Shown: piece by piece, positions 5,721 through 40,966 of the stretch
How the letters are laid out: the number at the start of each line of letters is the position of its first letter
Numbering within the stretch: the first letter of the stretch is position 1
NCBI GenBank assembly: GCA_046484805.1
Contig: JAWOIF010000157.1
Coordinates: 35,000 to 98,999 of the forward strand
Direction: 5' to 3'
Origin: Bacteroidales bacterium
GTDB taxonomy: Bacteria > Bacteroidota > Bacteroidia > Bacteroidales > VadinHA17
Length of the DNA stretch: 64,000 nt
Program-made: the position numbers and the translations under genes
Notes under the pieces: generated by a model
Databases searched by the model: none
Told to the model about the DNA's origin: nothing
The model's input: only the letters and a program-made list of their open reading frames with translations

Positions 5721-8700
5721 ATGATAACGAAGATGAAGCCTGATTTTTTATTCGAGACCAGCTGGGAAATTTGCAATAAGGTAGGTGGTATCCATACGGT
5801 CATATCAACAAAAGCACTGAATATTGTTAATGAATTAGGGAATAATTATATACTGATAGGCCCGGATGTGTGGCGTGAAGATACCAAAAACCCTGAATTC
5901 ATACCCGATGAGACTCTGTTTGCGGCCTGGAAAGGATTTGCTGCGGGTGAAGGTCTCAGAGTCAAGACGGGGAGATGGAACATAGCAGGAAAGCCAATTG
6001 TCATGCTGCTGGACTTCACTCCTTATTTTGGTCAGCAGGACGAGATATTTGCCAGGTTCTGGGAGACATACAAGCTTGACAGCATCTCGGGTCAGTGGGA
6101 TTATGTTGAGCCGGCACTTTTCGGATATGCTGCCGGCAAACTAATTGCCAGCTTTACCACCTTCTACAGGGAGAGTCAGGCAGTAGTCGCTCAGTTTCAT
6201 GAATGGATGACGGGTACAGGAGTATTGTATCTCAAAGAAACTGCTCCATGGGTGGCAACCTCATTCACAACCCATGCAACCGTGCTGGGTCGCTCTATAG
6301 CAGGGAATAACCGTCCCCTTTATGGTCAGATGAAGCAATATGTGCCTTCACAGGTAGCTCTTGAATTCAATGTTACGGCAAAACAATCACTGGAAAAATT
6401 GAGCGCAGTTGAGGCAGACGTATTTACTACTGTAAGCGGTATAACTTCCAAAGAGTGTGCTCACTTCCTTGGGAAGGAGGTTAACTATGTTACTCCAAAC
6501 GGTTTTGAAGATTCATTTGTTCCGCCGGCTTCCGAATTCGGAAAGAAGCGTGAAGCAGCAAGAAACAAACTTCTTGATGTTGCTGAGGCGGTCTTTGGTT
6601 ACACACCATCTTCAGATGCCTTACTGCTTGCACTAAGCGGCAGGTATGAATTCAGGAACAAGGGAGTGGATATTTTTATTGATTCACTGGGCTGTCTTAA
6701 CCGCGACACTAAACCGGGAAAGGAGATAATCGCTTTTATCCTTATGCCGGCTTACCATTCCGGTCCGCGTGCCGATATCCAGTCAGCCCTCAATGACAGT
6801 AATTCGAAGAATACCGGAGATAAGTATCTTACACACGGACTGCATTATCCTGGCACCGACCCGGTTTTGTCAAAGATAGCAGTCAATAAACTGACCAATG
6901 AATCAGGTTCAAGGGTGAAAATAATCTTTGTGCCCTCATATCTTAACGGTGATGACGGAGTATTCAATATACCATACTTTGATCTGCTTATTGGATTCGA
7001 CCTTACTTCTTTCCCATCCTACTATGAACCATGGGGCTACACTCCATTGGAAAGCCTGATGTTCTCGATTCCTACAATTACCACTACCCTGGCCGGATTC
7101 GGACTATGGGTGAAGACCCATTTTGAAAACCCCGGCAAAGGAATTGCAGTCATTGATAGAACCGATGAAAATGAACAGGAAGTAATAAAGGAGATGTGTA
7201 AATTCATTTCTGAATTTACCCGTCTCTCATCTGACAAGGTAGAAGAGGCAAGGGGAAAAGCCCATGAGATATCAAGGATTGCGATGTGGGATACTCTTGT
7301 TACTCATTATTATGATGCTTATTCCTATGCTCTTGTTTCCTCTGAGGTCAGAAGATCAGAACCGAGAGAATTTGCCATTGCACTTGCCGGTCAGGCTGGC
7401 GAAAGCAGGAAACCTCACCAGGTTCCGGTGTGGAAAGATATCTTCGTTCAGTCTGATGTGCCGGAAAGAATGACATGCCTTAAAGAGATAGCCTGCAACC
7501 TTTGGTGGTCGTGGAATAATGAAGCTGAAAATATGTTCCAGAGGATGGCCCCGTCACTATGGGAAGCCTGTGGTCATAATCCAAGGCTCCTCATTGAAAA
7601 GATAGATTACAAGAGGTTGAAGGTGCTCTCGGAGGATGAGGATTTCATCACGGAAATGGACAGGATATACGCGATTTTCAGGGAGTATATGGACAGACCC
7701 GATGATGCTTCCAAACCAAGGGTCGCATATTTTAGTATGGAATTCGGTATACACCATTGCCTGAAGATCTATTCAGGGGGACTTGGTATTCTGGCAGGCG
7801 ATTATCTTAAGGAAGCAAGCGACTCAAATGTGCCGCTGGTAGCAATAGGCCTTCTATACAGGTACGGGTACTTCAGGCAGAAACTTGGTCCTAAAGGAGA
7901 GCAGATCGCAATTTACGAAGCAGAGGATTTCTCACATCTTCCCCTGTGCCCGGTAAAAGATCAGGAGGATAACCATTTGTCGGTCAGCCTTGTCTGGCCG
8001 GGGAGAAACGTGCTGGCAAGGGTTTGGGAGGCAAAGATCGGAAAGGTAACGCTCTACCTGCTCGATACAGATTTTGATGAAAACAGCCACGAGGACAGAT
8101 CAGTAACCCATCATCTGTATGGTGGAGACAATGAGAACAGACTCAAACAGGAGCTGGTACTTGGTATTGGAGGAATAAGGGTTCTCAGAAAGCTGGGGAT
8201 AACACCCGATATCTATCATAGTAATGAGGGACATTCAGCTTTCATTGGAATGGAGAGGCTGTTCCATCTTATCGGAGATAATCACCTCAGGTATGAAGAG
8301 GCGGTTGAAGTTGTGAGGTCCTCTACTCTTTTCACAACACATACTCCGGTGCCGGCAGGACATGATGCATTTGATGAAGATCTGTTAAGGAGATATATAT
8401 CTCATTATCATTCCCGACTGAAGATATCATGGGATGAACTTATGGCGCTCGGGAGGTGTTCGTCAGAACCCGAACGAAAGTTCAATATGAGTTATCTGGC
8501 AACAAGGCTTTCACAGCAAGTCAATGGTGTAAGTAAGCTTCACGGAGAGGTTTCAAGGGCAATGTTCAACAAGCTCTGGCCGGGTTACCTTAAGGAAGAG
8601 CTTCATATCGGGCATGTGACCAATGGTGTTCACCATCCGACATGGTTGGCGCCACAGTGGCGTGACGTTTATGAGGAGCTTACCGGGCAGCGCTACTTTG

Positions 8701-9956
8701 ACCAGACAGACAGAAGCCTTTGGGAAAGAATATACTCGCTTGAAGACAAAAAGGTATATGATATCAGAAGAGAACTGAAATCAGCATTGTTCAAGGCAAT
8801 CAGGAGTAAGCTTCAGAGTGAAATGATCGACAAGCACGTTAGCCCGAGGAAGCTGCTGAATATAAGTACCCATCTTGATGAGAAAGTATTGACAATTGGT
8901 TTTGCCAGAAGATTCGCAACCTACAAGAGAGCTCACCTTCTGTTTACTGATCTTGACAGGCTTGATGCCCTTGTTAATAATCCCGATCAGCCCGTACAGT
9001 TCATATATGCAGGTAAGGCTCACCCTCAGGACGGAGGTGGACAGGGTCTTATACAACGCATAAATGAAATATCGCAGATGCCGAGGTTTGCAGGAAAGAT
9101 TCTTTTCCTTGAGAATTACAACATGGAGCTTGCAAAGCTATTGGTCAGAGGTGTTGACATATGGCTTAATACTCCTACGAGGCCACTGGAGGCTTCGGGT
9201 ACAAGCGGCGAGAAGGCGGTTATGAATGGAACCCTCCATTTCAGCGTACTTGACGGATGGTGGGTGGAAGGCTTCAGGGCATTTGCGGGCTGGGCCCTGC
9301 CTCAGAAGAGAATTTTCACCAATCAAATCCTTCAGGATGACATAGATGCTGAAACTATTTACAATATGCTTACATATGAAATTGTGCCTGCATACTATTC
9401 ATTTAATGAAAATAATATTCCGGTGGAGTGGATCAGCCTGGTAAAAAACACCATGGTAAGGATTGCTCCGGAGTTTACGATGAAGAGGATGATTGATGAC
9501 TATATTGAAAAATACTATCAGCCACTCTGGAACCGTAGTCGTCGCATAATTTCAGATGAGTTTGCCCTTGCAAGGGAGATGGCCTCCTGGAAGGAGGAAA
9601 TGGTAAGAGAATGGGATAATATTGATATTCTATCCTATAATATCGAGAAACCTGATGGAAATGTTTACAGGTCGGGCAGAAAATACAGGGCAGAGGTTGT
9701 TCTCGATGTTAATACTATTCAGCAGGAGTTTGTCGGGGTCGAGTATGTTCTGACAAGGATGAAGACGACAGGGGAGTATGAATTTGTTGCCAGTGGAGAA
9801 TTCAAACCAGTGGGCTTCAAGAAAGGTAAGTGCTATTTCAGGGCAGAGCTGACACCTGAGAAGGCTGGATCATTCTTCTATGGAATCAGGATATTCCCCA
9901 AGCATAAGATGCTTCCCCACAGACAGGATTTTCCCCTGCTGAGATGGATTGTTTAA
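5721..9956 (+). CDS. Fusion protein: GT3 (eukaryote-like) glycogen synthase N-terminal half + GT35 alpha-glucan phosphorylase C-terminal half
   Basis: One uninterrupted 1,411-aa ORF. The N-half has LFETSWEICNKVGGIHTVISTKA and YEPWGYTPLES (GT3 signatures). The C-half has LWWSWNNEA (DUF3417-type N-terminus), GGLGILAGDYLK and EASGTSGEKAVMNG (PLP-lysine motif of phosphorylases). Confidence 0.85.
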   Translation: MITKMKPDFLFETSWEICNKVGGIHTVISTKALNIVNELGNNYILIGPDVWREDTKNPEFIPDETLFAAWKGFAAGEGLRVKTGRWNIAGKPIVMLLDFTPYFGQQDEIFARFWETYKLDSISGQWDYVEPALFGYAAGKLIASFTTFYRESQAVVAQFHEWMTGTGVLYLKETAPWVATSFTTHATVLGRSIAGNNRPLYGQMKQYVPSQVALEFNVTAKQSLEKLSAVEADVFTTVSGITSKECAHFLGKEVNYVTPNGFEDSFVPPASEFGKKREAARNKLLDVAEAVFGYTPSSDALLLALSGRYEFRNKGVDIFIDSLGCLNRDTKPGKEIIAFILMPAYHSGPRADIQSALNDSNSKNTGDKYLTHGLHYPGTDPVLSKIAVNKLTNESGSRVKIIFVPSYLNGDDGVFNIPYFDLLIGFDLTSFPSYYEPWGYTPLESLMFSIPTITTTLAGFGLWVKTHFENPGKGIAVIDRTDENEQEVIKEMCKFISEFTRLSSDKVEEARGKAHEISRIAMWDTLVTHYYDAYSYALVSSEVRRSEPREFAIALAGQAGESRKPHQVPVWKDIFVQSDVPERMTCLKEIACNLWWSWNNEAENMFQRMAPSLWEACGHNPRLLIEKIDYKRLKVLSEDEDFITEMDRIYAIFREYMDRPDDASKPRVAYFSMEFGIHHCLKIYSGGLGILAGDYLKEASDSNVPLVAIGLLYRYGYFRQKLGPKGEQIAIYEAEDFSHLPLCPVKDQEDNHLSVSLVWPGRNVLARVWEAKIGKVTLYLLDTDFDENSHEDRSVTHHLYGGDNENRLKQELVLGIGGIRVLRKLGITPDIYHSNEGHSAFIGMERLFHLIGDNHLRYEEAVEVVRSSTLFTTHTPVPAGHDAFDEDLLRRYISHYHSRLKISWDELMALGRCSSEPERKFNMSYLATRLSQQVNGVSKLHGEVSRAMFNKLWPGYLKEELHIGHVTNGVHHPTWLAPQWRDVYEELTGQRYFDQTDRSLWERIYSLEDKKVYDIRRELKSALFKAIRSKLQSEMIDKHVSPRKLLNISTHLDEKVLTIGFARRFATYKRAHLLFTDLDRLDALVNNPDQPVQFIYAGKAHPQDGGGQGLIQRINEISQMPRFAGKILFLENYNMELAKLLVRGVDIWLNTPTRPLEASGTSGEKAVMNGTLHFSVLDGWWVEGFRAFAGWALPQKRIFTNQILQDDIDAETIYNMLTYEIVPAYYSFNENNIPVEWISLVKNTMVRIAPEFTMKRMIDDYIEKYYQPLWNRSRRIISDEFALAREMASWKEEMVREWDNIDILSYNIEKPDGNVYRSGRKYRAEVVLDVNTIQQEFVGVEYVLTRMKTTGEYEFVASGEFKPVGFKKGKCYFRAELTPEKAGSFFYGIRIFPKHKMLPHRQDFPLLRWIV

Positions 9957-29798: not shown

Positions 29799-29812
29799 AA
29801 ACTAAAACAAAG

Positions 29813-29855
29813 AGAGGCTGTCTCAAAACAAATTATTGAGGCAGCCTCTTTTTTC
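29813..29855 (+). terminator. Rho-independent terminator (left copy of the islet-bracketing hairpin)
   Basis: 14-bp stem, 29813-29826 / 29836-29849 (AGAGGCTGTCTCAA / TTGAGGCAGCCTCT, one G-U pair), a 9-nt loop, then a T6 run. Confidence 0.85.
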
Positions 29856-30063
29856 CCCATGTTAACCAATTTCTCGTATTGAGATTAAAAAACTTTGGTT
29901 TTTATTTGTAGACATTCAACTGTGGGTTCTTTTCGCTTTTTCCTATCATTTCTGCAAGGTTTTTCCCTAGTTTACCCAGAACCTTGCAAATTGACAAATT
30001 ATGTTTTCGATATATATTGTTAATTATCAACAATATAGACTGTTTATAAGGATCGACTAATTA

Positions 30064-30098
30064 TTAGAGGCAAAGAATCAAATAATCTTTGCCTCTAA
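30064..30098 (-). terminator. Perfect 13-bp hairpin downstream of the toxin operon (possible terminator)
   Basis: TTAGAGGCAAAGA (30064-30076) pairs with TCTTTGCCTCTAA (30086-30098) across a 9-nt loop. The flanking T-runs are weak in both orientations, so function and strand are uncertain. Confidence 0.4.
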
Positions 30099-30196
30099 GA
30101 TTTAATTTAATTCCCATATGGATAAGGATAAATTGGTCTTGGCGCAACATATGTATTATCTACTGGTGTTGTTGGTTGCGTTATATTTGATTTTGG

Positions 30197-30428
30197 TCAA
30201 TTCTTATGTAATTCATAAGCTCCGGCGGTACTAATCGCAGGCCAAAACCATTTTGGAGGTCTACTTCCGGGAGGATAATACTTATCATTTTGTAATCGAT
30301 TAATTTCTGGGTCAAAACTCCAATCAGTTGGATTGCCACGACTTGTTGTTGTTCTTTCCAAATTTGGATTTAAAATACTTTTACCTGCTAAGTGCAAAAT
30401 TATTGCCGATGTAATTCCAAAAACTCAT
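30197..30428 (-). pseudogene. Small ORF with hydrophobic N-terminus, split by a frameshift at a T5 (plus-strand A5) run
   Basis: The ATG at 30428 opens only 15 codons (MSFWNYIGNNFALSR*). The 66-codon track ORF (30197-30397, TTG start) is in the adjacent frame. Deleting one T at 30419-30423 would give MSFGITSAIILHLAGKSILNPN...AYELHKN. Confidence 0.4.
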
Positions 30429-30452
30429 TCCCCTCCCTGTGAACCGACCTCT

Positions 30453-30923
30453 CTATAATTCAACCTCTAAATTATCTATAACCTCCTTTTTACCATTACA
30501 ATATTTTACAAAAACAAACTCTAAATTCTCATATTTCAACTTAGTATATCCAACCACATTATCCGTTTTATCGAGTTCAGCTACTTTAACGCTATCTAAC
30601 AGAGAAGAATTACTTTGAAATGCTACGAAAACAAACGTCTTTTCAGATTTATCTTTATACTTTACCTCAATATAATTCATTGAGGTATAATTGTTATAGT
30701 TAAAATTGTATTTAGCAATTTTGTATTCGGAAGCAACTTCACCAGTTAATGTAGAACAGACAATGTTTTTGTATAGAGATTCTGCTATATTATCCCAGTC
30801 ATCATAAGCTTCTCCATCTTCCCATTTTATTTTTGCTTTTTCAAGCCAAGGAATTATTGCCAATAATGCGCCTCTGAATATTACTACTAAATCGGTTACA
30901 GATGTTTTCAATTTGTTGCTCAT
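30453..30923 (-). CDS. Putative cognate immunity protein of the RHS toxin (unknown family)
   Basis: The ATG at 30923 lies 2 nt after the RHS stop codon (30926-30928). The product is 156 aa (MSNKLKTSVTDLVVIFRGALLAIIPWLEK...) with no signal peptide. The longer track ORF start (31040) would overlap the toxin gene and was rejected. Confidence 0.6.
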   Translation of the reverse strand: MSNKLKTSVTDLVVIFRGALLAIIPWLEKAKIKWEDGEAYDDWDNIAESLYKNIVCSTLTGEVASEYKIAKYNFNYNNYTSMNYIEVKYKDKSEKTFVFVAFQSNSSLLDSVKVAELDKTDNVVGYTKLKYENLEFVFVKYCNGKKEVIDNLEVEL

Positions 30924-30925
30924 AA

Positions 30926-33900
30926 TTAATTTCCCCATATTCGTTTTATTAGATTTAGTTGCTCTTGTGTCGGTGCCACTTTCGGTCCAAATCCTTGACC
31001 TGGTATTACTGACTTCGCCCTTTCCCTTGTTATATCCCAAATCACCTGTCCTTGTTGATTAGTAATAAGAACTCTACCTTCTACACCACCTTTAACAACC
31101 GAATTAGCGGGACCAGTAGCGTTCTTTAGCAATTGGCCACTTCTACCTCCTTTAATAACGATATCTGAGTGAGTTGCAAGATTGCTTACCCCCTTACTGG
31201 CAACTACTGTAGTTTTAGCACCAAAATTTATCGTAGAAGCCTTTCCTAAAGTAAAAACTTCCCCAGCACATACCAAAAACCAACCAGCTGCATTCAAGTA
31301 GTCACCAGCATAAATTGCATCCATTGTTCTTGCACTTGAACTTAAACCAGGCCAATTGTAAATGCTGTACCAAGCTTGCCCCCTTCCATTTGTGGCCATT
31401 ACTGCATCCTTTGCGCGCCAGCGAATTGGTTTTTCAGGATTGACTACTACCTCAGGGATAACGAATGCATTTTCCCAATCAGAATTCTCGAAAGAAGCAG
31501 AATTGGTGCCATAATCAATTTCCGGGTTATCGCCGGTAGTACTTTCAGGGATTGAGGAAGATCCTCCTCCATTGAAAATTCTTTTCAAGAAATCCTTCAG
31601 CCATCCTCGCTTATAACCTGTTGGATCAATATATTTTAACGGGTTATTCAGGCAGTAAGTATACCTGTTGAAGTTCTGGACATTTGAGGGTGACTGTATG
31701 AACGGGTCAGGACTCAGGAACATAGCAAGCAACGGATCATAAACTCTGCCATTCATATTAATTATTCCGAAATCATCGAGATGCTGGTGTCCTGTGAAAC
31801 CTCTGTCAAACCGAAATTCCGTGTTAAAGGTGTCAAAATCCCAGTCATCTGTGGACCTCCTGCGACCCCAGGGATCAAAGCTCAACCACTCTTCGGCAGT
31901 CCCTGAGCTGTTTGTAATAACATCAAATGAGCCCAGGATGTCGCTATGAATATAGAAGATGGAATCTCCCCCTGTCTTAGACTCCAGAATAGCAGATAGT
32001 CCTGATGGGGTATATATGTAGTAAAGCTCCCTTGTACCCTTTACCGTGTCTACTTCCTTTTCATAACTACCGAGTGCGAAGTATTTAGTAAGTCTGGTCA
32101 CCGAGTTCTCTTCCTGAATAGTCTTTATTCTTCTCTGATCCGGTCCGTAGGTTATGGAAAGGTTCTTGTTAAGGATTCCATCCGAGACTGAAACTGTGTT
32201 TATCTTATTGAACTTTGTATATGTAATGTTCTGAGTGGGGAGGTTCTCAATAAGTGGGGTTCTGTCAGTAATGGAGTCAAGGCGGTGCACATAGGTTGGA
32301 TTATAGCAAAATGTTCCGACATCGCGCTTCGATATTATATTGCCTAAGCCTCCTGAATCATATGTTAACGACAGAGTGTCAGTCCCTATAACTGCGGTAA
32401 TTAACCTGTCCTGGCTGTCATAAGTAAAATACTCTTCGTTGTATGTGCCGGAAGAATTCAGACCTTTTCGCTTAACAATATTACCAAAGGTACTACTAAA
32501 ATCATAATCCCAGTCCTGTATTTGAATAGTTCCTTTTACTGATTCAATCTTATCAAGGTAACCATACTGATCAAAAGAGATAGTGGTATTTACCCCGTTG
32601 CCCAAATCGTAATTATCTATAATTCCGTATTGGTTCATACTATTGGCTTGCCAAATCGTAGTAAGGCTTGAAGATACTTCAAGATTAACCTGGTTCAGAT
32701 AACCATAGTTATTGTAATCATATGAAATGGTTGCAAAATTGTTAAATCCGGCAGAAGAGATGTCTCCATTTGCGAGGTAAGAGTACTGTGCAGTAAAGAT
32801 GTTTCCAGGCTCAATCCTTTCAGACTTTGATGCAACCCTGAATAAAGAGTCGTAGGTGAAGGTATGTTCAGATCCGTTGGTCGATAAAATGCTTGTAAGA
32901 TAGCTTGAGGAAGAATTGTAAGTGTATGTAATGGTATCCCCACCAAGCCTTGCAACCTTAGTTAATCTTCCAAGAGGATCATATTCCATATCAACAACAC
33001 TGCCTTCAGCATCTGTTTGCCTTATAAGCTCTCCGTATATATTGTAATCATAATCTGTTATTCCGGCATCAATATCGATCAGCTCATCCTGGAATCCATA
33101 CTGATCATAAGTGATGACGGTTGTCCCTGAGGGTGAGGTAATAGACGTTACCTTGCCGTCTGGATTATAAGCATATTGAATTGTTCCTCCTGGTTCTGTT
33201 GTCTCAACAATCAAACCGGATTCATCAATTTCCCGGGAAAAAGATCTGTTACCTTTTGTTATGGTTGTTTTCAGCGGTGTGTAAGTATAGCTGGTTGTAA
33301 CATTCTGTGGAAAAACGGTTTCTGAGGAGAGCCTGTTTTTAGAATCATAATTGTATTCAACATACTGTGTTCTGCTTTCACCATCAAAATAAGGGGAATA
33401 GGCTTTATTAATCCTGCCATTAACGTCATACTCTTTGTCTGTAATCAGGAATGTTCCGTCAAAGCCCTGAGTCTTGGCTCTGACTTCTCTGCCAAGAATA
33501 TCATAGAAAGTATATGTAACAGGATTGCCGGATGAACTGGTTTTAACATAATAGAGATCATCAGCATTTTCCACTCCACATGACCAACCCAGATTTATAT
33601 ATTCTGTATTGCCTGATGGATACTCTACCGTGGTTATATTACCAAAAGCATCATAAGAGAATTTTGTTGAGAGGCCATTATGATCAACACTGCTTTTGAG
33701 CCCTCCTGAAGATTGGAAGTAAGAATATGTTGTTGTCTTTCCAAGTGGATTGGTATTTGAGACCATGAATCTCTTCCTTGGAGATTCCCAACTCATTTCA
33801 GTAGTCTTTGACGTTGTACCATCACTTATCTGAATAGAGGTAGAATTACCATAGTTATCATAAGTATACGTAACCCTCAGAGTATCTGTTGTACCGAATA

Positions 33901-36730
33901 ATCTCGTTTCTTTTTTTAGTTTTCCGGAAAGATAGTATTCATACAGGTTGTTTCTGACAATGGTATCACCCCCTCGGGTTGTCATAATTATTTCATTATG
34001 AGGCATTCCATGACCTGTAAAGTTCGAATATGCTTCTACGACACTCACTGTTATATTATCATTCAAATCCATGAATTTGGTTACTGTGGATGTTATGTTC
34101 CCAAGAGTGTCTATTGTTGCTGACACCTGATTTTTTACGTCGTTACTTATATCATAGTCTGTAGAGAGACTACGATATGCAAAAAATCTTTTCCCATCAA
34201 ACAAAGAATCGATTGATTGTTCATATTCTTGCCTTTGCACGAGTTCGCCACCAAAGAAAATTCTTGTTTGTGAAAGGTAGGTATTGAAAAACAGGGTGTC
34301 ATAGGAGAGTTCTATTATTGTGCTGTCTGTGGTTATATTGTCGCAGATGAAGTTTTTCGTAAAACCAAGCGACCCTTTGCCCCGAAGGTGTTCCTTTAGA
34401 TTGGAGTAATAATATGTTTTTTCACCTAATAAGACTTCTGTATTATCATTATATATCTTTACATTATGAACTACTTTTTTAGGGTAAATAGCTCTTCTTA
34501 CATATGAATGAAATGTTTCAGATTCTGTAAGATAGATACTGGAATTAGTAAGCAGGCCATATTGGATATGATGAGTCAGGTTCAGCCCATTGGTGATAGC
34601 AACAATCAAACCCCTTTTGTCTCCCGGGTAAAACTCCAAAACTTTGTCCCCTCCATTATTCATCATAATAAGAAGGTCTGTTGTTCCATCAAAGTTATTG
34701 TCCAGCAGATTCGAGTATCTCGGTTTTTGAGCCCCCGAATAAATGGATTCGGTTTTGAACTGAAGGCCGGTACTTATATACATGTCTTCTGTAAGAATGT
34801 CGGTATAGGTCATAGCCTCTCCCGGAATACCGGTTGCTTCTTTAATATATAATGATTTAAATATATCTGTTTTACCGTCCCTGTTGAAATCATGAACGAA
34901 TAATTGAAGACTTAGCTCTTCGTAATAAGTAATGGGTTCAGGCTCGCCACCTAAAGGAGGTTCTCCGCCAACTGGCTGACCAACAAAGGAGTAAATAGAT
35001 ATTGGGCCTTGAACAGAATGGAAAGTTTCTCCGTCAGAAAAGGCAATTCTGGTTCGTATTGAGTCCGGTATCGAATACTTGTCAACTAACAACAAATCTG
35101 TCTTCCCATCACCGTTAAAATCACCACTATAGTATTCATCATTATAAGAATTATAATAATAACTGACGAGGATTCTAAAGTCCTCATCATATTTAACATA
35201 TTCATATATTTTGAATACGCCGTTATTCTCAGTAAGAATATCCGACTTTCCATTACCATTAAAATCAATCACAGAAACATTTCTTACACCAGAAAAGGAT
35301 AAAAAGTGCTGACCCTGAATGTTAATACCTTGTATGGTGCCTGATGAATAATAGCCTCCTGAGTAATTGACAAACATTCTATCTATATCTCCATCCCCGT
35401 CAAAATCTCCTGGAATACAGTATCCGACATTGTTTGCCGAAGTGTTATATCTGTAATTTCTGGCACTCACATTAACCAACTCCACTCCATCCAGCTCATA
35501 ATACTTGAAGTCCTCATAATAAGTAGATCGGTATTGCCAATATGTATCATCATCTCCATCAGCGTCATAGTCGAAAACCACAATGCCAATGAAGGCTGAG
35601 TTCAGGACGCCGGAGTCAGTGTTTACATAATCATCTATATCCTCATTATAGAGGTATAATTTCCATACATCTGATGTGCTATATATGGTTTTCTTTGCCA
35701 TTGTAATATAATCAGGTTTGCCATCACCATTAAAGTCACCTGTGAAGATGCGTTTATCGCTTGTTGTAACGGACCCGGCATCTACAAGCCTGGTCGATGG
35801 CAAACTATTAGTCCCCCACTGGAACCTGGTATTATTGAATGAAGATCCATCACCGGCAGATTCACTAATCTCAACTAATTTTGTGTAAAAGTTGGTATTA
35901 TAATCGAAGTCATACCTTCTGACAAGAGTATCATCGCAAATAACTTCTATCTTGTTTATAAGCAGCTTCTGCGGAGTCTCACCGCCAGGGAAGAATACCT
36001 GGTTCTTGTTTTGTCTCGTTTCATATGAGAATGCAATTTCATTATACGGAATCAAATTCTCTGAATTATTTCCTGTATAGTGGATGCTTTCAAGAAAGGA
36101 CTGACCGATAGAATAGTTGTATCCATAATTGAAAGAAATATAATTGCCATGAACATCTGTAATCATTGTAACATTCCAAACAATTGCCCGGGAGTTGTCA
36201 TCCACTACCTTTGAGTTTGACGCATTGCCATACTCAATGACAGTACCATCTTTCATTATTACCTCGAACCATGCGGGACCACTTGTTCCATGTGATATAA
36301 TGGTTGCAAAGGTTTCTGATTCAGTCTTATATGTTGAGTTGTCTCCACCATAAGCACCTGTTGCAGAAATCAGATAATTACCATCAAGTGCAAAAAGATC
36401 ATCGCTATCCATATCAATTGCCTTAACAACTCCATTCATGTAATAGGGCGTAACAACCCTGTAAATGGAAGTAAGCCCTTTAAGATGAAAGTCCTTTCCA
36501 AATAAACCTTCTCCCGAGCAGCTATTGTAATCTATACTTAGCTGGGGGCTCATTCCTCCTGTTCCCGGGGAGGCAAAAACCGGTATTGTATAAGTTGATG
36601 CACCACTTAAAGACACGGAAAAGACTCCTTGTGCAGAGCCGACAATCCTTGTCGTATCAATGACAGAGGGAAAAGCAGAAATATTGAAAGATAATATAAT
36701 GAATATTGCTACGGATATTTGTTTTTTCAT
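30926..36730 (-). CDS. RHS/YD-repeat polymorphic toxin: signal peptide + SpvB-N domain + FG-GAP/VCBS repeats + YD-repeat shell + RHS core + 228-aa C-terminal toxin module
   Basis: 1,934 aa. Signal peptide: MKKQISVAIFIILSFNISAF. SpvB-like: STYTIPVFASPGTGGMSPQLSIDYNS..GLFGKDFHLKGLTSIYR. FG-GAP-type motifs: GDFNGDGKPD, GDFDGDGDID, DFNGNGKSD, GDFNGDGKTD, HDFNRDGKTD. There are many YD repeats (YTYDNYGN, FSYDAFGN, YAYNPDGK, MEYDPLGR...). RHS core: YIHSDILGS...FDPWGRRR...GRVYDPLLAMFLSPDP...NNPLKYIDPTGY. Confidence 0.9.
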   Translation of the reverse strand: MKKQISVAIFIILSFNISAFPSVIDTTRIVGSAQGVFSVSLSGASTYTIPVFASPGTGGMSPQLSIDYNSCSGEGLFGKDFHLKGLTSIYRVVTPYYMNGVVKAIDMDSDDLFALDGNYLISATGAYGGDNSTYKTESETFATIISHGTSGPAWFEVIMKDGTVIEYGNASNSKVVDDNSRAIVWNVTMITDVHGNYISFNYGYNYSIGQSFLESIHYTGNNSENLIPYNEIAFSYETRQNKNQVFFPGGETPQKLLINKIEVICDDTLVRRYDFDYNTNFYTKLVEISESAGDGSSFNNTRFQWGTNSLPSTRLVDAGSVTTSDKRIFTGDFNGDGKPDYITMAKKTIYSTSDVWKLYLYNEDIDDYVNTDSGVLNSAFIGIVVFDYDADGDDDTYWQYRSTYYEDFKYYELDGVELVNVSARNYRYNTSANNVGYCIPGDFDGDGDIDRMFVNYSGGYYSSGTIQGINIQGQHFLSFSGVRNVSVIDFNGNGKSDILTENNGVFKIYEYVKYDEDFRILVSYYYNSYNDEYYSGDFNGDGKTDLLLVDKYSIPDSIRTRIAFSDGETFHSVQGPISIYSFVGQPVGGEPPLGGEPEPITYYEELSLQLFVHDFNRDGKTDIFKSLYIKEATGIPGEAMTYTDILTEDMYISTGLQFKTESIYSGAQKPRYSNLLDNNFDGTTDLLIMMNNGGDKVLEFYPGDKRGLIVAITNGLNLTHHIQYGLLTNSSIYLTESETFHSYVRRAIYPKKVVHNVKIYNDNTEVLLGEKTYYYSNLKEHLRGKGSLGFTKNFICDNITTDSTIIELSYDTLFFNTYLSQTRIFFGGELVQRQEYEQSIDSLFDGKRFFAYRSLSTDYDISNDVKNQVSATIDTLGNITSTVTKFMDLNDNITVSVVEAYSNFTGHGMPHNEIIMTTRGGDTIVRNNLYEYYLSGKLKKETRLFGTTDTLRVTYTYDNYGNSTSIQISDGTTSKTTEMSWESPRKRFMVSNTNPLGKTTTYSYFQSSGGLKSSVDHNGLSTKFSYDAFGNITTVEYPSGNTEYINLGWSCGVENADDLYYVKTSSSGNPVTYTFYDILGREVRAKTQGFDGTFLITDKEYDVNGRINKAYSPYFDGESRTQYVEYNYDSKNRLSSETVFPQNVTTSYTYTPLKTTITKGNRSFSREIDESGLIVETTEPGGTIQYAYNPDGKVTSITSPSGTTVITYDQYGFQDELIDIDAGITDYDYNIYGELIRQTDAEGSVVDMEYDPLGRLTKVARLGGDTITYTYNSSSSYLTSILSTNGSEHTFTYDSLFRVASKSERIEPGNIFTAQYSYLANGDISSAGFNNFATISYDYNNYGYLNQVNLEVSSSLTTIWQANSMNQYGIIDNYDLGNGVNTTISFDQYGYLDKIESVKGTIQIQDWDYDFSSTFGNIVKRKGLNSSGTYNEEYFTYDSQDRLITAVIGTDTLSLTYDSGGLGNIISKRDVGTFCYNPTYVHRLDSITDRTPLIENLPTQNITYTKFNKINTVSVSDGILNKNLSITYGPDQRRIKTIQEENSVTRLTKYFALGSYEKEVDTVKGTRELYYIYTPSGLSAILESKTGGDSIFYIHSDILGSFDVITNSSGTAEEWLSFDPWGRRRSTDDWDFDTFNTEFRFDRGFTGHQHLDDFGIINMNGRVYDPLLAMFLSPDPFIQSPSNVQNFNRYTYCLNNPLKYIDPTGYKRGWLKDFLKRIFNGGGSSSIPESTTGDNPEIDYGTNSASFENSDWENAFVIPEVVVNPEKPIRWRAKDAVMATNGRGQAWYSIYNWPGLSSSARTMDAIYAGDYLNAAGWFLVCAGEVFTLGKASTINFGAKTTVVASKGVSNLATHSDIVIKGGRSGQLLKNATGPANSVVKGGVEGRVLITNQQGQVIWDITRERAKSVIPGQGFGPKVAPTQEQLNLIKRIWGN

Positions 36731-36775: not shown

Positions 36776-37225
36776 TTATCTATACCCCGATTTAATAATC
36801 TTCCAGTCATATACTTCTTTTTCCATTCGAATGCGGAGAACATAAACCCCATCCCTCAATCCTGTAAGGTCGACCTCCATTTCATTGGAGTTGATGGCTT
36901 TTGTTAAGAGAAGATTCCCATTTAAGTTGTATACAAAATACTTAGACCTAAATCCTACTTCAAACCCTGAGAGTTCAATTTTTATTTTGCCCCTGGTGGG
37001 ATTAGGAAAGACTTTCATGAAGAATTCCTGTTCAACCTTTATTGGTTTAAATTCTTCAGGCGTCGTAACCGGAAATTCAAGAGGCATCAATTGCTCAATA
37101 ACAATTTCCCTGCAAGTCCTGTTGCCATTTGCATCATAGGAATAAAATTGTCCTCTTCCCTGTCCTGCTAAATGTAAACAAGAAGACAGGAGGAAAATTA
37201 AGAAAATTAAGGTTCCTTGTTTCAT
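36776..37225 (-). CDS. Small secreted protein: signal/lipobox + one YD repeat + T9SS type-A C-terminal sorting domain
   Basis: I prefer the ATG at 37225 over the TTG at 37273. 149 aa: MKQGTLIFLIFLLSSC (signal/lipobox), FYSYDANGNRT (YD motif), then KVFPNPTRGKIKIEL...VYNLNGNLL...GVYVLRI...KIIK (Por secretion tail pattern). It ends 45 bp upstream of the RHS start. Confidence 0.7.
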   Translation of the reverse strand: MKQGTLIFLIFLLSSCLHLAGQGRGQFYSYDANGNRTCREIVIEQLMPLEFPVTTPEEFKPIKVEQEFFMKVFPNPTRGKIKIELSGFEVGFRSKYFVYNLNGNLLLTKAINSNEMEVDLTGLRDGVYVLRIRMEKEVYDWKIIKSGYR

Positions 37226-37415
37226 GATGTGATATAGTATTGGTGACAGATCGAATTGTATTGCAGAAAGCAAATTACATCATAGATTTAGCTTTACCAA
37301 ATCTTTTTTCAGATGAAAAACCCAAAATATAGTTGATATACAGGCCTGGTTGAAAATTTGGAATGACAACTATTAAGTTAGTATAACTCGGTCCAGCAGA
37401 GATAATGATATGCAC

Positions 37416-37452
37416 TAAAAAGAAGAGAGGCTGCCCTTTTGAGACAGCCTCT
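37416..37452 (-). terminator. Rho-independent terminator of clpX (right, inverted copy of the islet-bracketing hairpin)
   Basis: The minus strand reads AGAGGCTGTCTCAAAAGGGCAGCCTCT followed by CTTCTTTTT. It lies 45 nt downstream of the clpX stop. Confidence 0.7.
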
Positions 37453-37496
37453 GTGTTTTTATCTAAACTCTGTTTTCAGAATATTCCAATAAGATG

Positions 37497-40808: not shown

Positions 40809-40884
40809 CCGTTTAAATTTTTTGTTTTGCAAAAAACCGCCCAAACCCTCTTTCTGTCGATCCGTTTAAGCGGTTTAAATCAGG

Positions 40885-40966
40885 TGCGGATGAAGGGACT
40901 CGAACCCCCACGCCCTAAGGCACAAGATCCTAAGTCTTGCGCGGCTACCAATTACGCCACATCCGC
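40885..40966 (-). tRNA. tRNA-Leu (anticodon TAG)
   Basis: The minus strand reads GCGGATGTGGCGTAATTGGTAGCCGCGCAAGACTTAGGATCTTGTGCCTTAGGGCGTGGGGGTTCGAGTCCCTTCATCCGCA. It has a 7-bp acceptor stem, an anticodon stem CAAGA/TCTTG with loop CTTAGGA, a long variable arm and a TTCGAGT T-loop. CCA is not encoded. Confidence 0.9.

Follow-up and report, generated by a model that had tools for sequence, protein, structure and literature searches.

The window, by which we mean the whole 64-kb stretch of DNA that was analysed, belongs to a Rikenellaceae-like Bacteroidales genome and contains a 7.6-kb island of low GC that carries a polymorphic-toxin operon of three genes. The central gene is a single uninterrupted reading frame for a large RHS protein, with a small partner gene upstream, a putative immunity gene downstream, and a terminator-like hairpin at each edge of the island:

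29801..29851, no strand assigned: left edge of the low-GC island, a terminator-like hairpin with one copy of a 20-nt direct repeat
30453..30923, minus strand: putative immunity gene, 156 aa, its ATG 2 nt past the RHS stop codon
30926..36730, minus strand: RHS open reading frame, 1,934 aa, 216.4 kDa
30929..31381, minus strand: variable toxin tip, aa ~1784-1934
31382..31612, minus strand: post-cleavage conserved linker, aa 1707-~1783, common to a close relative with another toxin
31613..31876, minus strand: Rhs-associated core, aa 1619-1706, ending in DPTGY
31877..34633, minus strand: RHS/YD-repeat shell, aa ~700-1618, with RHS_repeat, YD_repeat_2x and partial RHS_core matches
34676..35737, minus strand: FG-GAP/VCBS beta-propeller, aa 332-685, with FG-GAP_3 in five stretches and an FG-GAP match
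36119..36610, minus strand: SpvB/TcB N-terminal domain, Pfam match at aa 41-204, the region reaching ~aa 300
36671..36730, minus strand: predicted Sec-type signal peptide of the RHS protein, aa 1-20, read from the translation
36776..37225, minus strand: partner gene, 149 aa, with signal peptide, YD-type hairpin, linker and T9SS type-A CTD
37414..37460, no strand assigned: right edge of the island, a near-identical terminator-like hairpin (the clpX terminator) with the second repeat copy

The island edges are free of tRNA genes, the sole one being a tRNA-Leu at 40883-40966, 3.4 kb off, and no integrase was found in the window. The remaining scanned ORFs are housekeeping genes, including those for glycogen metabolism, ribF, ahcY, greA, ruvC, serS, thyA, folA, clpXP, tig, tatC, recQ, carAB, argRGH, mgtE, purH and mreB. 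Pfam and NCBIfam scans of ~45 ORFs detected no TcA, T6SS, PAAR/VgrG or CDI (CdiB) gene within the 64 kb, in agreement with what an earlier note on this DNA had claimed. The same scans found no T9SS component in the window, and no TPS domain, filamentous haemagglutinin repeats or CdiB were found in the RHS protein or the window. Readings of the locus as a T6SS effector, a CDI system or a true Tc toxin were rejected, as the domains or partner genes that they require were not found within the window and a Sec signal is present.

The N-terminus of the RHS protein (MKKQISVAIFIILSFNISAF) consists of an n-region and a strongly hydrophobic h-region (highest 10-residue Kyte-Doolittle mean 2.90). The same type of N-terminus, with the hydrophobic h-region kept, is seen in 22 of 24 aligned family members, supporting the signal peptide predicted in the earlier note at aa 1-20. 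The SpvB match (PF03534, E = 8.7e-13, 48.5 bits against a cut-off of 22) falls within the SpvB-N-like region that the note had placed at about aa 30-300. Where it had reported at least five FG-GAP motifs, we count seven of the Ca-binding type, with the form D-x-N/D-x-D/N-G-x-x-D, at aa 332, 387, 442, 489, 537, 614 and 677; FG-GAP_3 scores 41.2 bits over its five stretches (cut-off 26.9). A YD shell, an RHS core ending in DPTGY at aa 1706 and a C-terminal toxin next to it had also been described, and this order was recovered with RHS_repeat (E = 1e-23, 83.6 bits, cut-off 22), YD_repeat_2x (52.5 bits, cut-off 15.8) and Rhs_assc_core (TIGR03696, aa 1619-1705, 61.8 bits, cut-off 32.5), DPTGY itself occupying aa 1702-1706. 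All domain matches of the protein exceed the curated cut-offs, and the domain annotation that the note had proposed as a check, carried out with Pfam and NCBIfam, confirms SpvB, FG-GAP, RHS repeat and Rhs core. TEN_YD-shell and TcdB_toxin_midN domains are present among the homologues, many of which have the latter (PF12256); the RHS protein of the window has no PF12256 match at E <= 0.1.

Seven residues of the core (R1662, D1665, P1666, D1675, D1702, P1703 and G1705) are invariant in 24 homologues, and the Rhs core is presumed to be an aspartyl autoprotease together with its cleavage site. The protein thus has what characterises RHS/YD polymorphic toxins, namely RHS/YD repeats followed by an Rhs core with the putative catalytic aspartates D1665 and D1675 and DPxG at 1702-1705. 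Its signal peptide, SpvB domain and FG-GAP propeller, all N-terminal in the RHS toxin, are those of the 'TcdB/TcaC' class. Domain scans gave no match to a CTD of its own at the C-terminus, which is occupied by the toxin.

The earlier note treated this architecture as an oddity. Database comparison shows instead that a very common Bacteroidota family is normally built in this way: there are >1,000 RHS homologues, mostly from Bacteroidota, each with ~87% of the query covered, and their C-terminal toxin Pfams differ at the same position (e.g. PF15528, PF14113 and PF15535). The architecture was already described in 2012, when Zhang et al. (PMC3482391) catalogued it as the 'TcdB/TcaC' polymorphic-toxin trafficking class with Bacteroidetes among its hosts.

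The region after DPTGY (aa 1707-1934) comprises 228 aa with a pI of 9.5. BLASTP against a 92%-identical relative (L006) showed that identity continues to ...PEKPIRWRAK and then ends; past ~aa 1783 the two diverge, and L006 has another toxin tip and another immunity gene. The tip begins with a helical pre-toxin module (WYSIYNWPG...EVFTLG), followed by a core of ~85 aa, over most of which the AF2 model has pLDDT >90. The tip has zero sequence matches in Pfam or the PDB, and a Foldseek search of its model against the PDB gave no significant match; its 31 homologues are mostly orphan RHS tips. The 156-aa protein encoded downstream shows no obvious signal peptide, and orthologues with 72% and 55% identity lie directly downstream of homologous tips in two further loci (L085 and L086), so that both geometry and synteny point to an adjoining cognate immunity gene. 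Tip exchange between close relatives is evident from the partial query coverage, the differing C-terminal Pfams and the L006 swap. Judged by these patterns, the RHS locus behaves as a polymorphic toxin with a cognate immunity gene, and its targets are most probably other bacteria, because the 156-aa downstream protein would be an immunity factor.

The partner gene lies on the same strand as the RHS gene, and 45 bp separate its stop codon from the start of the latter. Its product has a signal peptide (aa 1-22, ending ...LAG, with Q as the next residue), a single YD-type beta-hairpin (aa ~26-46, QFYSYDANGNRTCREIVIEQL), a linker (aa ~47-68) and a T9SS type-A sorting domain (aa ~72-145), the last matched by both Por_Secre_tail (PF18962, 42 bits, cut-off 27) and TIGR04183 (42.8 bits, cut-off 23). 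NCBI lists a protein of 149 aa with 100% identity (P0152) under the name 'T9SS type A sorting domain-containing protein [Bacteroidales bacterium]'. In the AF2 model, strands 26-30 and 36-46, which make up the predicted hairpin, are followed by a seven-strand sandwich at 69-146. Alignment of the partner family showed that K142 and K145 near the C-terminus are invariant, and a near-C-terminal lysine is reported to contact PorV (PMC10994853). With its signal peptide, CTD beta-sandwich and near-C-terminal lysine, the partner has the features of a T9SS type-A cargo.

The hairpin is the other conserved part of the partner: Y30, D31, G34 and N35 are invariant, the consensus is f.YDa.GNR..R (motif [FY]xYDxxGNRxxR), and the linker is variable. 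In longer variants, both elements keep their terminal positions, N-terminal for the hairpin and C-terminal for the CTD, and the extra sequence is inserted between them. When Pfam was run on 10 partner passengers, RHS_repeat was the top match in 5, in one consistent register and at sub-threshold values (E 0.016-0.16); the partner of the window has no RHS_repeat match. A hairpin-only HMM scored barely above shuffled controls against the RHS shell repeats, which is not significant. The hairpin may thus be called a YD repeat at the motif level only.

The earlier note had linked the toxin to this upstream T9SS-CTD gene, and the link proved to be the key point of the locus. Of 34 low-GC loci, 26 have the partner directly upstream of the RHS gene and 8 are without it, whereas only 3 of 19 high-GC loci have it there; in the reverse direction, an SpvB-RHS gene comes after the partner gene in 30 of 32. 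The partner is therefore a conserved gene, tightly and reciprocally linked across Bacteroidota-like loci. A search for a docking site, comparing 30 partner-associated with 12 partner-less high-GC RHS proteins, revealed no group-specific segment; the comparison is confounded by phylogeny and gave 3 group-specific columns scattered among 213 conserved ones. The same adjacency has been reported in Apibacter, where Rhs genes adjoin genes for T9SS type-A sorting-domain proteins and the authors took their products for probable T9SS-associated proteins rather than T6SS effectors (Steele and Moran 2021, PMC8125069). In the literature, we found no mechanistic test of the RHS/T9SS-CTD gene adjacency and nothing useful on T9SS in Rikenellaceae or Alistipes. 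The locus is thus a member of an already known toxin family, and the puzzle of its export, which the earlier note raised, is real but less surprising than was implied, having been recognised before (PMC8125069 and PMC3482391).

How would such a protein leave the cell? We consider the chances about even that this RHS toxin acts against bacteria and is coupled to T9SS through a separate protein, which provides the sorting or anchoring signal in trans. This signal would have to come from the 149-aa protein because T9SS reads the C-terminus of its substrates, which is here filled by the encapsulated toxin. The RHS protein would be exported by Sec to the periplasm and fold there as a TcB-TcC-type cocoon, made of SpvB, the seven-motif FG-GAP propeller and the RHS shell, within which the Rhs core would cut DPTGY between G and Y and leave a toxin of ~25 kDa held inside. 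The partner would undergo its own Sec export and then dock on the cocoon by its YD-type hairpin, most simply through beta-strand addition, in the way that TcC joins TcB. The type-A CTD of the partner would then bind PorV and SprA. Once transport is complete, PorU would cleave off this CTD and attach the short passenger to anionic LPS, so that the cocoon is left tethered on the cell surface, from where contact-dependent delivery and entry into the target cell could follow. The more specific version, in which the partner is a dedicated adaptor whose hairpin complements beta-strands of the ~190-kDa cocoon and whose CTD carries or tethers it through T9SS, is advanced tentatively and is, in our estimate, possible more than probable. 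Several points count against the model: the hairpin is a YD repeat at the motif level only, the docking-site comparison gave no RHS segment specific to partner-associated proteins, 8 of 34 low-GC loci are without the partner, and no T9SS component was found in the window. In the SprA and Tc-toxin structures, moreover, the width of a folded BC-type cocoon roughly matches or exceeds that of the SprA pore, and we know of no demonstrated T9SS co-transport of a protein that lacks a CTD. A similar logic of T9SS export has been proposed for the TANFOR toxins (PMC7073777).

The Sec-exported cocoon might also leave the periplasm without T9SS, for example in OMVs or through lysis of a subpopulation. The small CTD protein would then have another, linked task: it might catch released cocoons as a surface receptor or docking peptide, serve as a tag for kin recognition, or act as a regulator. 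In favour of this, the RHS protein itself lacks a CTD, its interaction with the partner is one that we infer, and the 8 partner-less low-GC loci together with most high-GC homologues do without the partner altogether. Release by T10SS-dependent lysis is also the route of canonical Tc toxins, according to the accessible part of one report (PMC10847048). However, a direct physical partnership is indicated by the reciprocal linkage in 30 of 32, by the 45-bp spacing and by a hairpin that is strictly conserved. In addition, the high-GC lineages lack the partner and, presumably, T9SS as well, a pattern more in keeping with an adaptation to T9SS in particular than with an accessory role of a general kind. 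We therefore regard an exit independent of T9SS as unlikely, although it deserves to be weighed.

Combined SpvB, propeller and RHS regions are also the architecture of a TcB-TcC fusion, and the protein could in principle be the BC component of a true Tc (ABC) toxin against eukaryotic cells with its TcA encoded elsewhere in the genome. The Sec signal peptide speaks against this; to our knowledge, characterised TcB proteins have none. The tightly coupled, conserved immunity gene also counts against it, and no TcA-type domain was found in the window, in the gene tables of related loci (L001, L002/L003 and L004) or in 8 of the largest non-RHS ORFs neighbouring related loci. Tc-positive genomes can hold orphan TcC genes, but the Tc census is 96% Proteobacteria and 3% Firmicutes (PMC7861908), and we consider this reading very improbable.

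A teneurin-like surface protein for adhesion or recognition, whose C-terminal 'toxin' is not a weapon, seems just as improbable. Homologues do match TEN_YD-shell, one of them (P0094) is named 'Teneurin-like YD-shell domain-containing' in UniRef, and the tip is without a recognisable catalytic fold. On the other hand, close relatives swap the tip, a cognate protein encoded downstream of it is conserved, the RHS protein retains an intact autoprotease motif, and known toxin Pfams such as PF15528, PF14113 and PF15535 take the same position in homologues. T6SS commonly carries Rhs proteins as cargo, and T6SS(iii) occurs in Bacteroidales. A T6SS(iii) effector loaded through a VgrG/PAAR protein encoded elsewhere is nevertheless the least credible possibility, as the protein starts with a Sec signal peptide and then SpvB and shows no PAAR, prePAAR or VgrG-binding module, no T6SS gene was found in the window or in the L001, L002/L003 and L004 gene tables, and Steele and Moran drew the same conclusion for Apibacter (PMC8125069).

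If the trans-signal model holds, this would be the first case of piggyback (hitch-hiker) export by T9SS and a general answer to how toxins with an occupied C-terminus use a secretion system that reads C-terminal signals. It would make T9SS an interbacterial weapon across the Bacteroidota and widen its rules of substrate recognition, and the hairpin and CTD together could serve as a simple handle to display large cargo on Bacteroidota surfaces. Bacteroidota dominate gut, oral, soil and marine communities and have thousands of giant SpvB-RHS toxins; the linkage to the partner gives the old question of a TcA-less, TcB-TcC-like cocoon a concrete and genetically testable answer. Should the model prove wrong, what remains is a polymorphic toxin-immunity island that is ordinary and well-formed.

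Finally, we compared the locus with known systems. The BC cocoons of Tc toxins (Photorhabdus TcdB2-TccC3 and Yersinia YenB-YenC2) have the same order of SpvB, FG-GAP-type propeller gate, RHS/YD shell and autoprotease core, and likewise encapsulate a hypervariable C-terminal toxin; both natural and engineered TcB-TcC fusions exist. In contrast to them, the locus has a Sec signal, an adjoining immunity gene, a Bacteroidota host and a small T9SS-tagged partner, with no TcA in the window or in the related loci sampled, whereas lysis (T10SS) sets Tc toxins free and TcA injects them. For the 'TcdB/TcaC' class, Zhang et al. 2012 assumed a TcdB/TcaC-like export route, and the accessible part of that article does not mention a partner with YD-hairpin and T9SS-CTD (PMC3482391). 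The Apibacter SpvB/TcdB-Rhs proteins belong to the same family and show the same gene adjacency, reported as a passing remark on one genus, without the partner architecture, the breadth across the phylum or a mechanism (PMC8125069).

T6SS Rhs effectors (RhsA, Tse15 and Photorhabdus Tre23-Rhs) are similarly antibacterial, with an RHS cocoon, core autocleavage, an encapsulated polymorphic toxin and downstream immunity. They differ in being cytoplasmic and VgrG-loaded, with N-terminal PAAR, prePAAR or clade domains and a plug, and lack the SpvB domain, propeller and signal peptide found here. Teneurins share a YD shell plugged by a beta-propeller, derive from bacterial YD toxins and are represented among the matches of our homologues by TEN_YD-shell; they are, however, adhesion receptors of eukaryotes and type-II membrane proteins, their propeller is of the NHL type, and they have no immunity gene. 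TANFOR toxins (Jana, Salomon and Bosis 2020, PMC7073777) resemble the RHS protein in having a signal peptide, a polymorphic C-terminal toxin, an immunity gene and no CTD of their own, and they lie in neighbourhoods rich in CTD-bearing T9SS substrates, with T9SS export put forward as a hypothesis. Their delivery module is TANFOR and not SpvB/RHS, and the neighbours are large SprB/Fn3/PKD proteins in place of a ~145-aa hairpin-CTD partner. WapA of Bacillus subtilis and Streptococcus also combines a Sec signal, RHS repeats and a polymorphic toxin with immunity. It is a Gram-positive protein that uses its own wall-binding repeats as anchor, with no outer membrane to cross and no separate adaptor, but its cell-wall-anchored display on the producer surface for contact-dependent inhibition is the functional outcome that we propose here.

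The RHS protein is encoded by a single intact reading frame, and its SpvB, FG-GAP, YD-shell and Rhs-core regions, which an earlier note had read from the translation, were all borne out by profile scores above curated cut-offs. The features of this gene and of the upstream partner gene are as follows.

30926..36730 (-): RHS ORF, single and intact, 1,934 aa, 216.4 kDa
RHS protein, N-terminus: MKKQISVAIFIILSFNISAF, n- and h-regions of a Sec signal
RHS protein, aa 41-204: SpvB, profile search, 48.5 bits, above curated cut-off
RHS protein, aa 332-685: seven Ca-binding-type FG-GAP motifs
RHS protein, five stretches: FG-GAP_3, 41.2 bits, above curated cut-off
RHS protein: RHS_repeat, 83.6 bits, above curated cut-off
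RHS protein: YD_repeat_2x, profile match above curated cut-off
RHS protein, aa 1619-1705: Rhs-associated core, 61.8 bits, above curated cut-off
RHS protein, aa 1702-1706: DPTGY
36776..37225 (-): partner ORF, 149 aa, its end separated from the RHS start codon by 45 bp

The FG-GAP/VCBS motifs, earlier put at 'at least five', number seven, and the RHS core does end at DPTGY. Residues R1662, D1665, P1666, D1675, D1702, P1703 and G1705 of the core motif are invariant across 24 relatives. The predicted signal peptide is likewise supported, with the Sec-signal-like N-terminus kept in 22 of the 24 aligned relatives. The window protein passes directly from signal peptide to SpvB; many homologues (seen in P0001, P0003, P0004, P0009, P0020 and P0033) carry an extra domain of ~60 aa right after the signal peptide, with the motif ...ARD.V.L.PGF.Y.... 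Scanning ~45 ORFs across the 64 kb with Pfam and NCBIfam revealed housekeeping genes only and no TcA, T6SS, PAAR/VgrG or CdiB genes, in agreement with the absence of such partners noted before. The earlier observation is real and its interpretation correct. Elsewhere in the window, a 1,411-aa ORF (5721-9956) within a glycogen-metabolism cluster encodes glycogen synthase, DUF3417 and carbohydrate phosphorylase domains as one fusion.

Among the candidates scored from a search of 5.8 billion proteins, 1,061 homologues of the RHS protein were found at E <= 1e-10, nearly all of 1,900-2,400 aa with SpvB, FG-GAP, RHS and TEN_YD-shell, and often TcdB_toxin_midN. Named sources were Bacteroidales, Bacteroidia, Chitinophagaceae, Saprospiraceae, Spirosoma, Niastella and similar taxa. 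Query coverage was ~87% in nearly all of them, i.e. everything except the C-terminal tip, where the homologues bear differing toxin Pfams. The closest relative in this collection shares 50% identity. The RHS protein, diverging by 50%, belongs to a family that is known and very abundant. Zhang et al. (2012) list the SpvB-RHS architecture as the 'TcdB/TcaC' class of polymorphic toxins, with Bacteroidetes among its hosts (PMC3482391), and a census of genuine Tc toxins, requiring adjacency to tcA or tcB, gave 96% Proteobacteria and 3% Firmicutes (PMC7861908). The partner, compared with the 50% maximum for the RHS protein, is present at 100% identity as P0152 on a 110-kb NCBI MAG contig, and the deposited annotation may have missed the RHS gene or classed it as a pseudogene.

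P0152 is named 'T9SS type A sorting domain-containing protein' (NCBI: 'Bacteroidales bacterium'), and the partner scores above cut-off for both Por_Secre_tail and TIGR04183. It is ordered as a signal peptide (...LAG|Q), the motif QFYSYDANGNRTCR, a variable linker and the CTD (PNPT...G.YVL...WKIIK). In the AlphaFold prediction, strands 26-30 and 36-46 form a beta-hairpin that coincides exactly with the motif; a linker of ~20 residues with hardly any regular secondary structure follows, and then a sandwich of seven strands. Across 28 distinct partners, conservation is confined to the signal peptide with its ...AQ end, the hairpin f.YDa.GNR..R and the CTD; in a second alignment, Y30, D31, G34, N35, K142 and K145 are invariant. 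RHS_repeat was the top match of the hairpin in five of ten partners, in one register and below threshold, with none for the window's partner, and a hairpin-only profile against the shell repeats was not significant. Judged from these comparisons, the hairpin is a YD repeat at motif level only. Long partner variants of 424-1,301 aa keep the YD-like segment N-terminal and the CTD C-terminal with extra domains between. Examples are L010:4035-5510, L008:3202-4476 and L066:158-4063 (metagenome loci), with inserts such as FlgD_ig; their layout is consistent with a bipartite dock-and-sort design.

The link that the earlier note drew to the upstream T9SS-CTD gene holds: the partner is conserved and its linkage to SpvB-RHS genes is reciprocal, both architecture and linkage being direct observations. 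The same small gene lies upstream in L001, the closest RHS homologue, and in L002 and L003 (33% identity). A partner profile built from these small upstream proteins was run on the 79 metagenome loci that the RHS alignment had recovered. The counts take in loci that cover the RHS N-terminus plus 900 bp or more upstream of it, a GC below 0.48 serving only as a proxy for Bacteroidota. A same-strand CTD-bearing partner stood immediately upstream in 26 of 34 low-GC loci, typically with a gap of 0-370 bp, and in 3/19 high-GC loci. In the reverse direction, 32 partner genes had 1.5 kb or more of sequence downstream, and 30 of these are followed by an SpvB-RHS gene. Four of the eight low-GC loci lacking the partner (L004, L015, L016 and L075) have N-terminally extended RHS proteins. 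No RHS segment specific to partner-associated proteins was found between 30 partner-associated and 12 partner-less high-GC proteins, a comparison confounded by phylogeny. In some operons, one or two genes of ~310-420 aa lie between partner and RHS gene (L002:6980-7918, L003:3377-4303, L007:8307-9569 and L001:6002-7972). The Peptidase_S74 domain (tail-fibre/endosialidase chaperone) present in those of L002, L003 and L007 hints that the accessory may be fibre-like. Next to the RHS gene of L007 lies a gene for a 126-aa protein with a C-terminal YD motif and no CTD.

The tip of the window protein comprises a helical pre-toxin module (WYSIYNWPG...EVFTLG) and a core of ~85 aa. The former is common to five homologues (P0147-P0151) that diverge from the query across the core; the latter is kept in ~26 mostly orphan RHS tips, including Amoebophilus Aasi_0845. 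AlphaFold predicts the core as beta strands and a C-terminal helix (pLDDT >90 over most of it), and no match was found in Pfam, PDB sequences or, by Foldseek, PDB structures. The downstream ORF starts 2 nt past the RHS stop codon, and proteins 72% and 55% identical to it directly follow homologous tips on unrelated contigs, so that it is the predicted cognate immunity gene. The toxin target might be cytoplasmic, possibly nucleic acid, given the basic pI (9.5) of the C-terminal region and the lack of an obvious signal peptide in the immunity protein. A metagenomic relative, L006 (59-4449), is 92% identical through the shell; similarity runs 77 residues beyond DPTGY and stops at ~aa 1783, where an unrelated tip begins; the gene behind that tip, of 180 aa, is different as well. 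Replacement of a toxin-immunity cassette is seen here directly, and ~aa 1783 marks its junction. Repeated YxNG/G-K motifs, seen by eye, suggest that the 180-aa product may be MORN-like. Homologues of the window tip also occur in arrays of short orphan toxin-immunity modules (L085:896-3786, L086:374-5442 and L087:22-5442), which are typical of RHS 'displaced tip' clusters.

The RHS gene lies within a 7.6-kb island (~29.8 to 37.4 kb) of ~38-39% GC compared to ~45% in the flanks, between thyA, folA and a 289-aa gene on one side and clpX-clpP-tig on the other. Near-identical terminator-like hairpins at both edges (29801-29851 and 37414-37460) have in common the 20-nt direct repeat ACTAAAAnnAAGAGAGGCTG. 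This suggests that the island was inserted into an intergenic terminator separating the folA-side genes from clpX, and that the terminator was duplicated. The edges showed neither an integrase nor a tRNA. A 98%-identical fragment is known from an uncultured Rikenellaceae MAG. The ~600 bp 3' of the immunity gene (29852-30452) have no convincing ORF, with a 19-nt inverted repeat (30058-30104) and a 66-aa ORF (30197-30397, -), and may be a decayed orphan cassette or operon terminator region.

The export puzzle of SpvB-RHS toxins has been recognised before. Most Apibacter rhs genes have SpvB/TcdB N-termini and adjoin T9SS type-A sorting-domain genes; Steele and Moran (2021) considered them 'probably' T9SS-associated and this aspect of T9SS 'not well understood' (PMC8125069), and Jana et al. 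(2020) made a parallel, untested T9SS proposal for TANFOR toxins (PMC7073777). In full texts, with most subscription journals outside the scope, we found nothing on the partner's hairpin-CTD architecture, phylum breadth or experimental test. New here are the quantified reciprocal linkage to a minimal partner (YD-like hairpin plus T9SS type-A CTD) and a testable trans-signal model.

We propose tentatively, as a possibility rather than a probability, that the partner supplies the T9SS signal in trans to the RHS cocoon, because this signal must be C-terminal while the C-terminus of the RHS protein is the toxin, cleaved and kept in the shell. Partner-cocoon binding, co-transport, tethering and target entry are steps that we infer. 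Both proteins would be exported by Sec, and the hairpin would then dock on the cocoon, most simply by beta-strand addition to a sheet edge, as TcC joins TcB in Tc toxins. Two points weigh against such transport: a folded BC cocoon has roughly the width of the SprA pore and, to our knowledge, hitch-hiker export is not established for T9SS. The CTD would then engage PorV within the SprA pore, by the mechanism described in PMC10994853. After removal of the CTD and attachment of A-LPS, the cocoon would stay on the cell surface as a tethered protein, placed for contact-dependent delivery. These two events are the standard fate of type-A cargo. More speculatively, receptor binding and membrane passage could fall to the propeller and the hydrophobic pre-toxin module. 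In the main rival reading, release is independent of the T9SS, by OMVs or lysis, and the partner would serve as a peptide for docking or recognition at the surface. The readings as true Tc toxin, as T6SS effector and as CDI each conflict with a defining feature that was tested. The surface-tethered cocoon proposed under the trans-signal reading would resemble WapA of Gram-positive bacteria in function.
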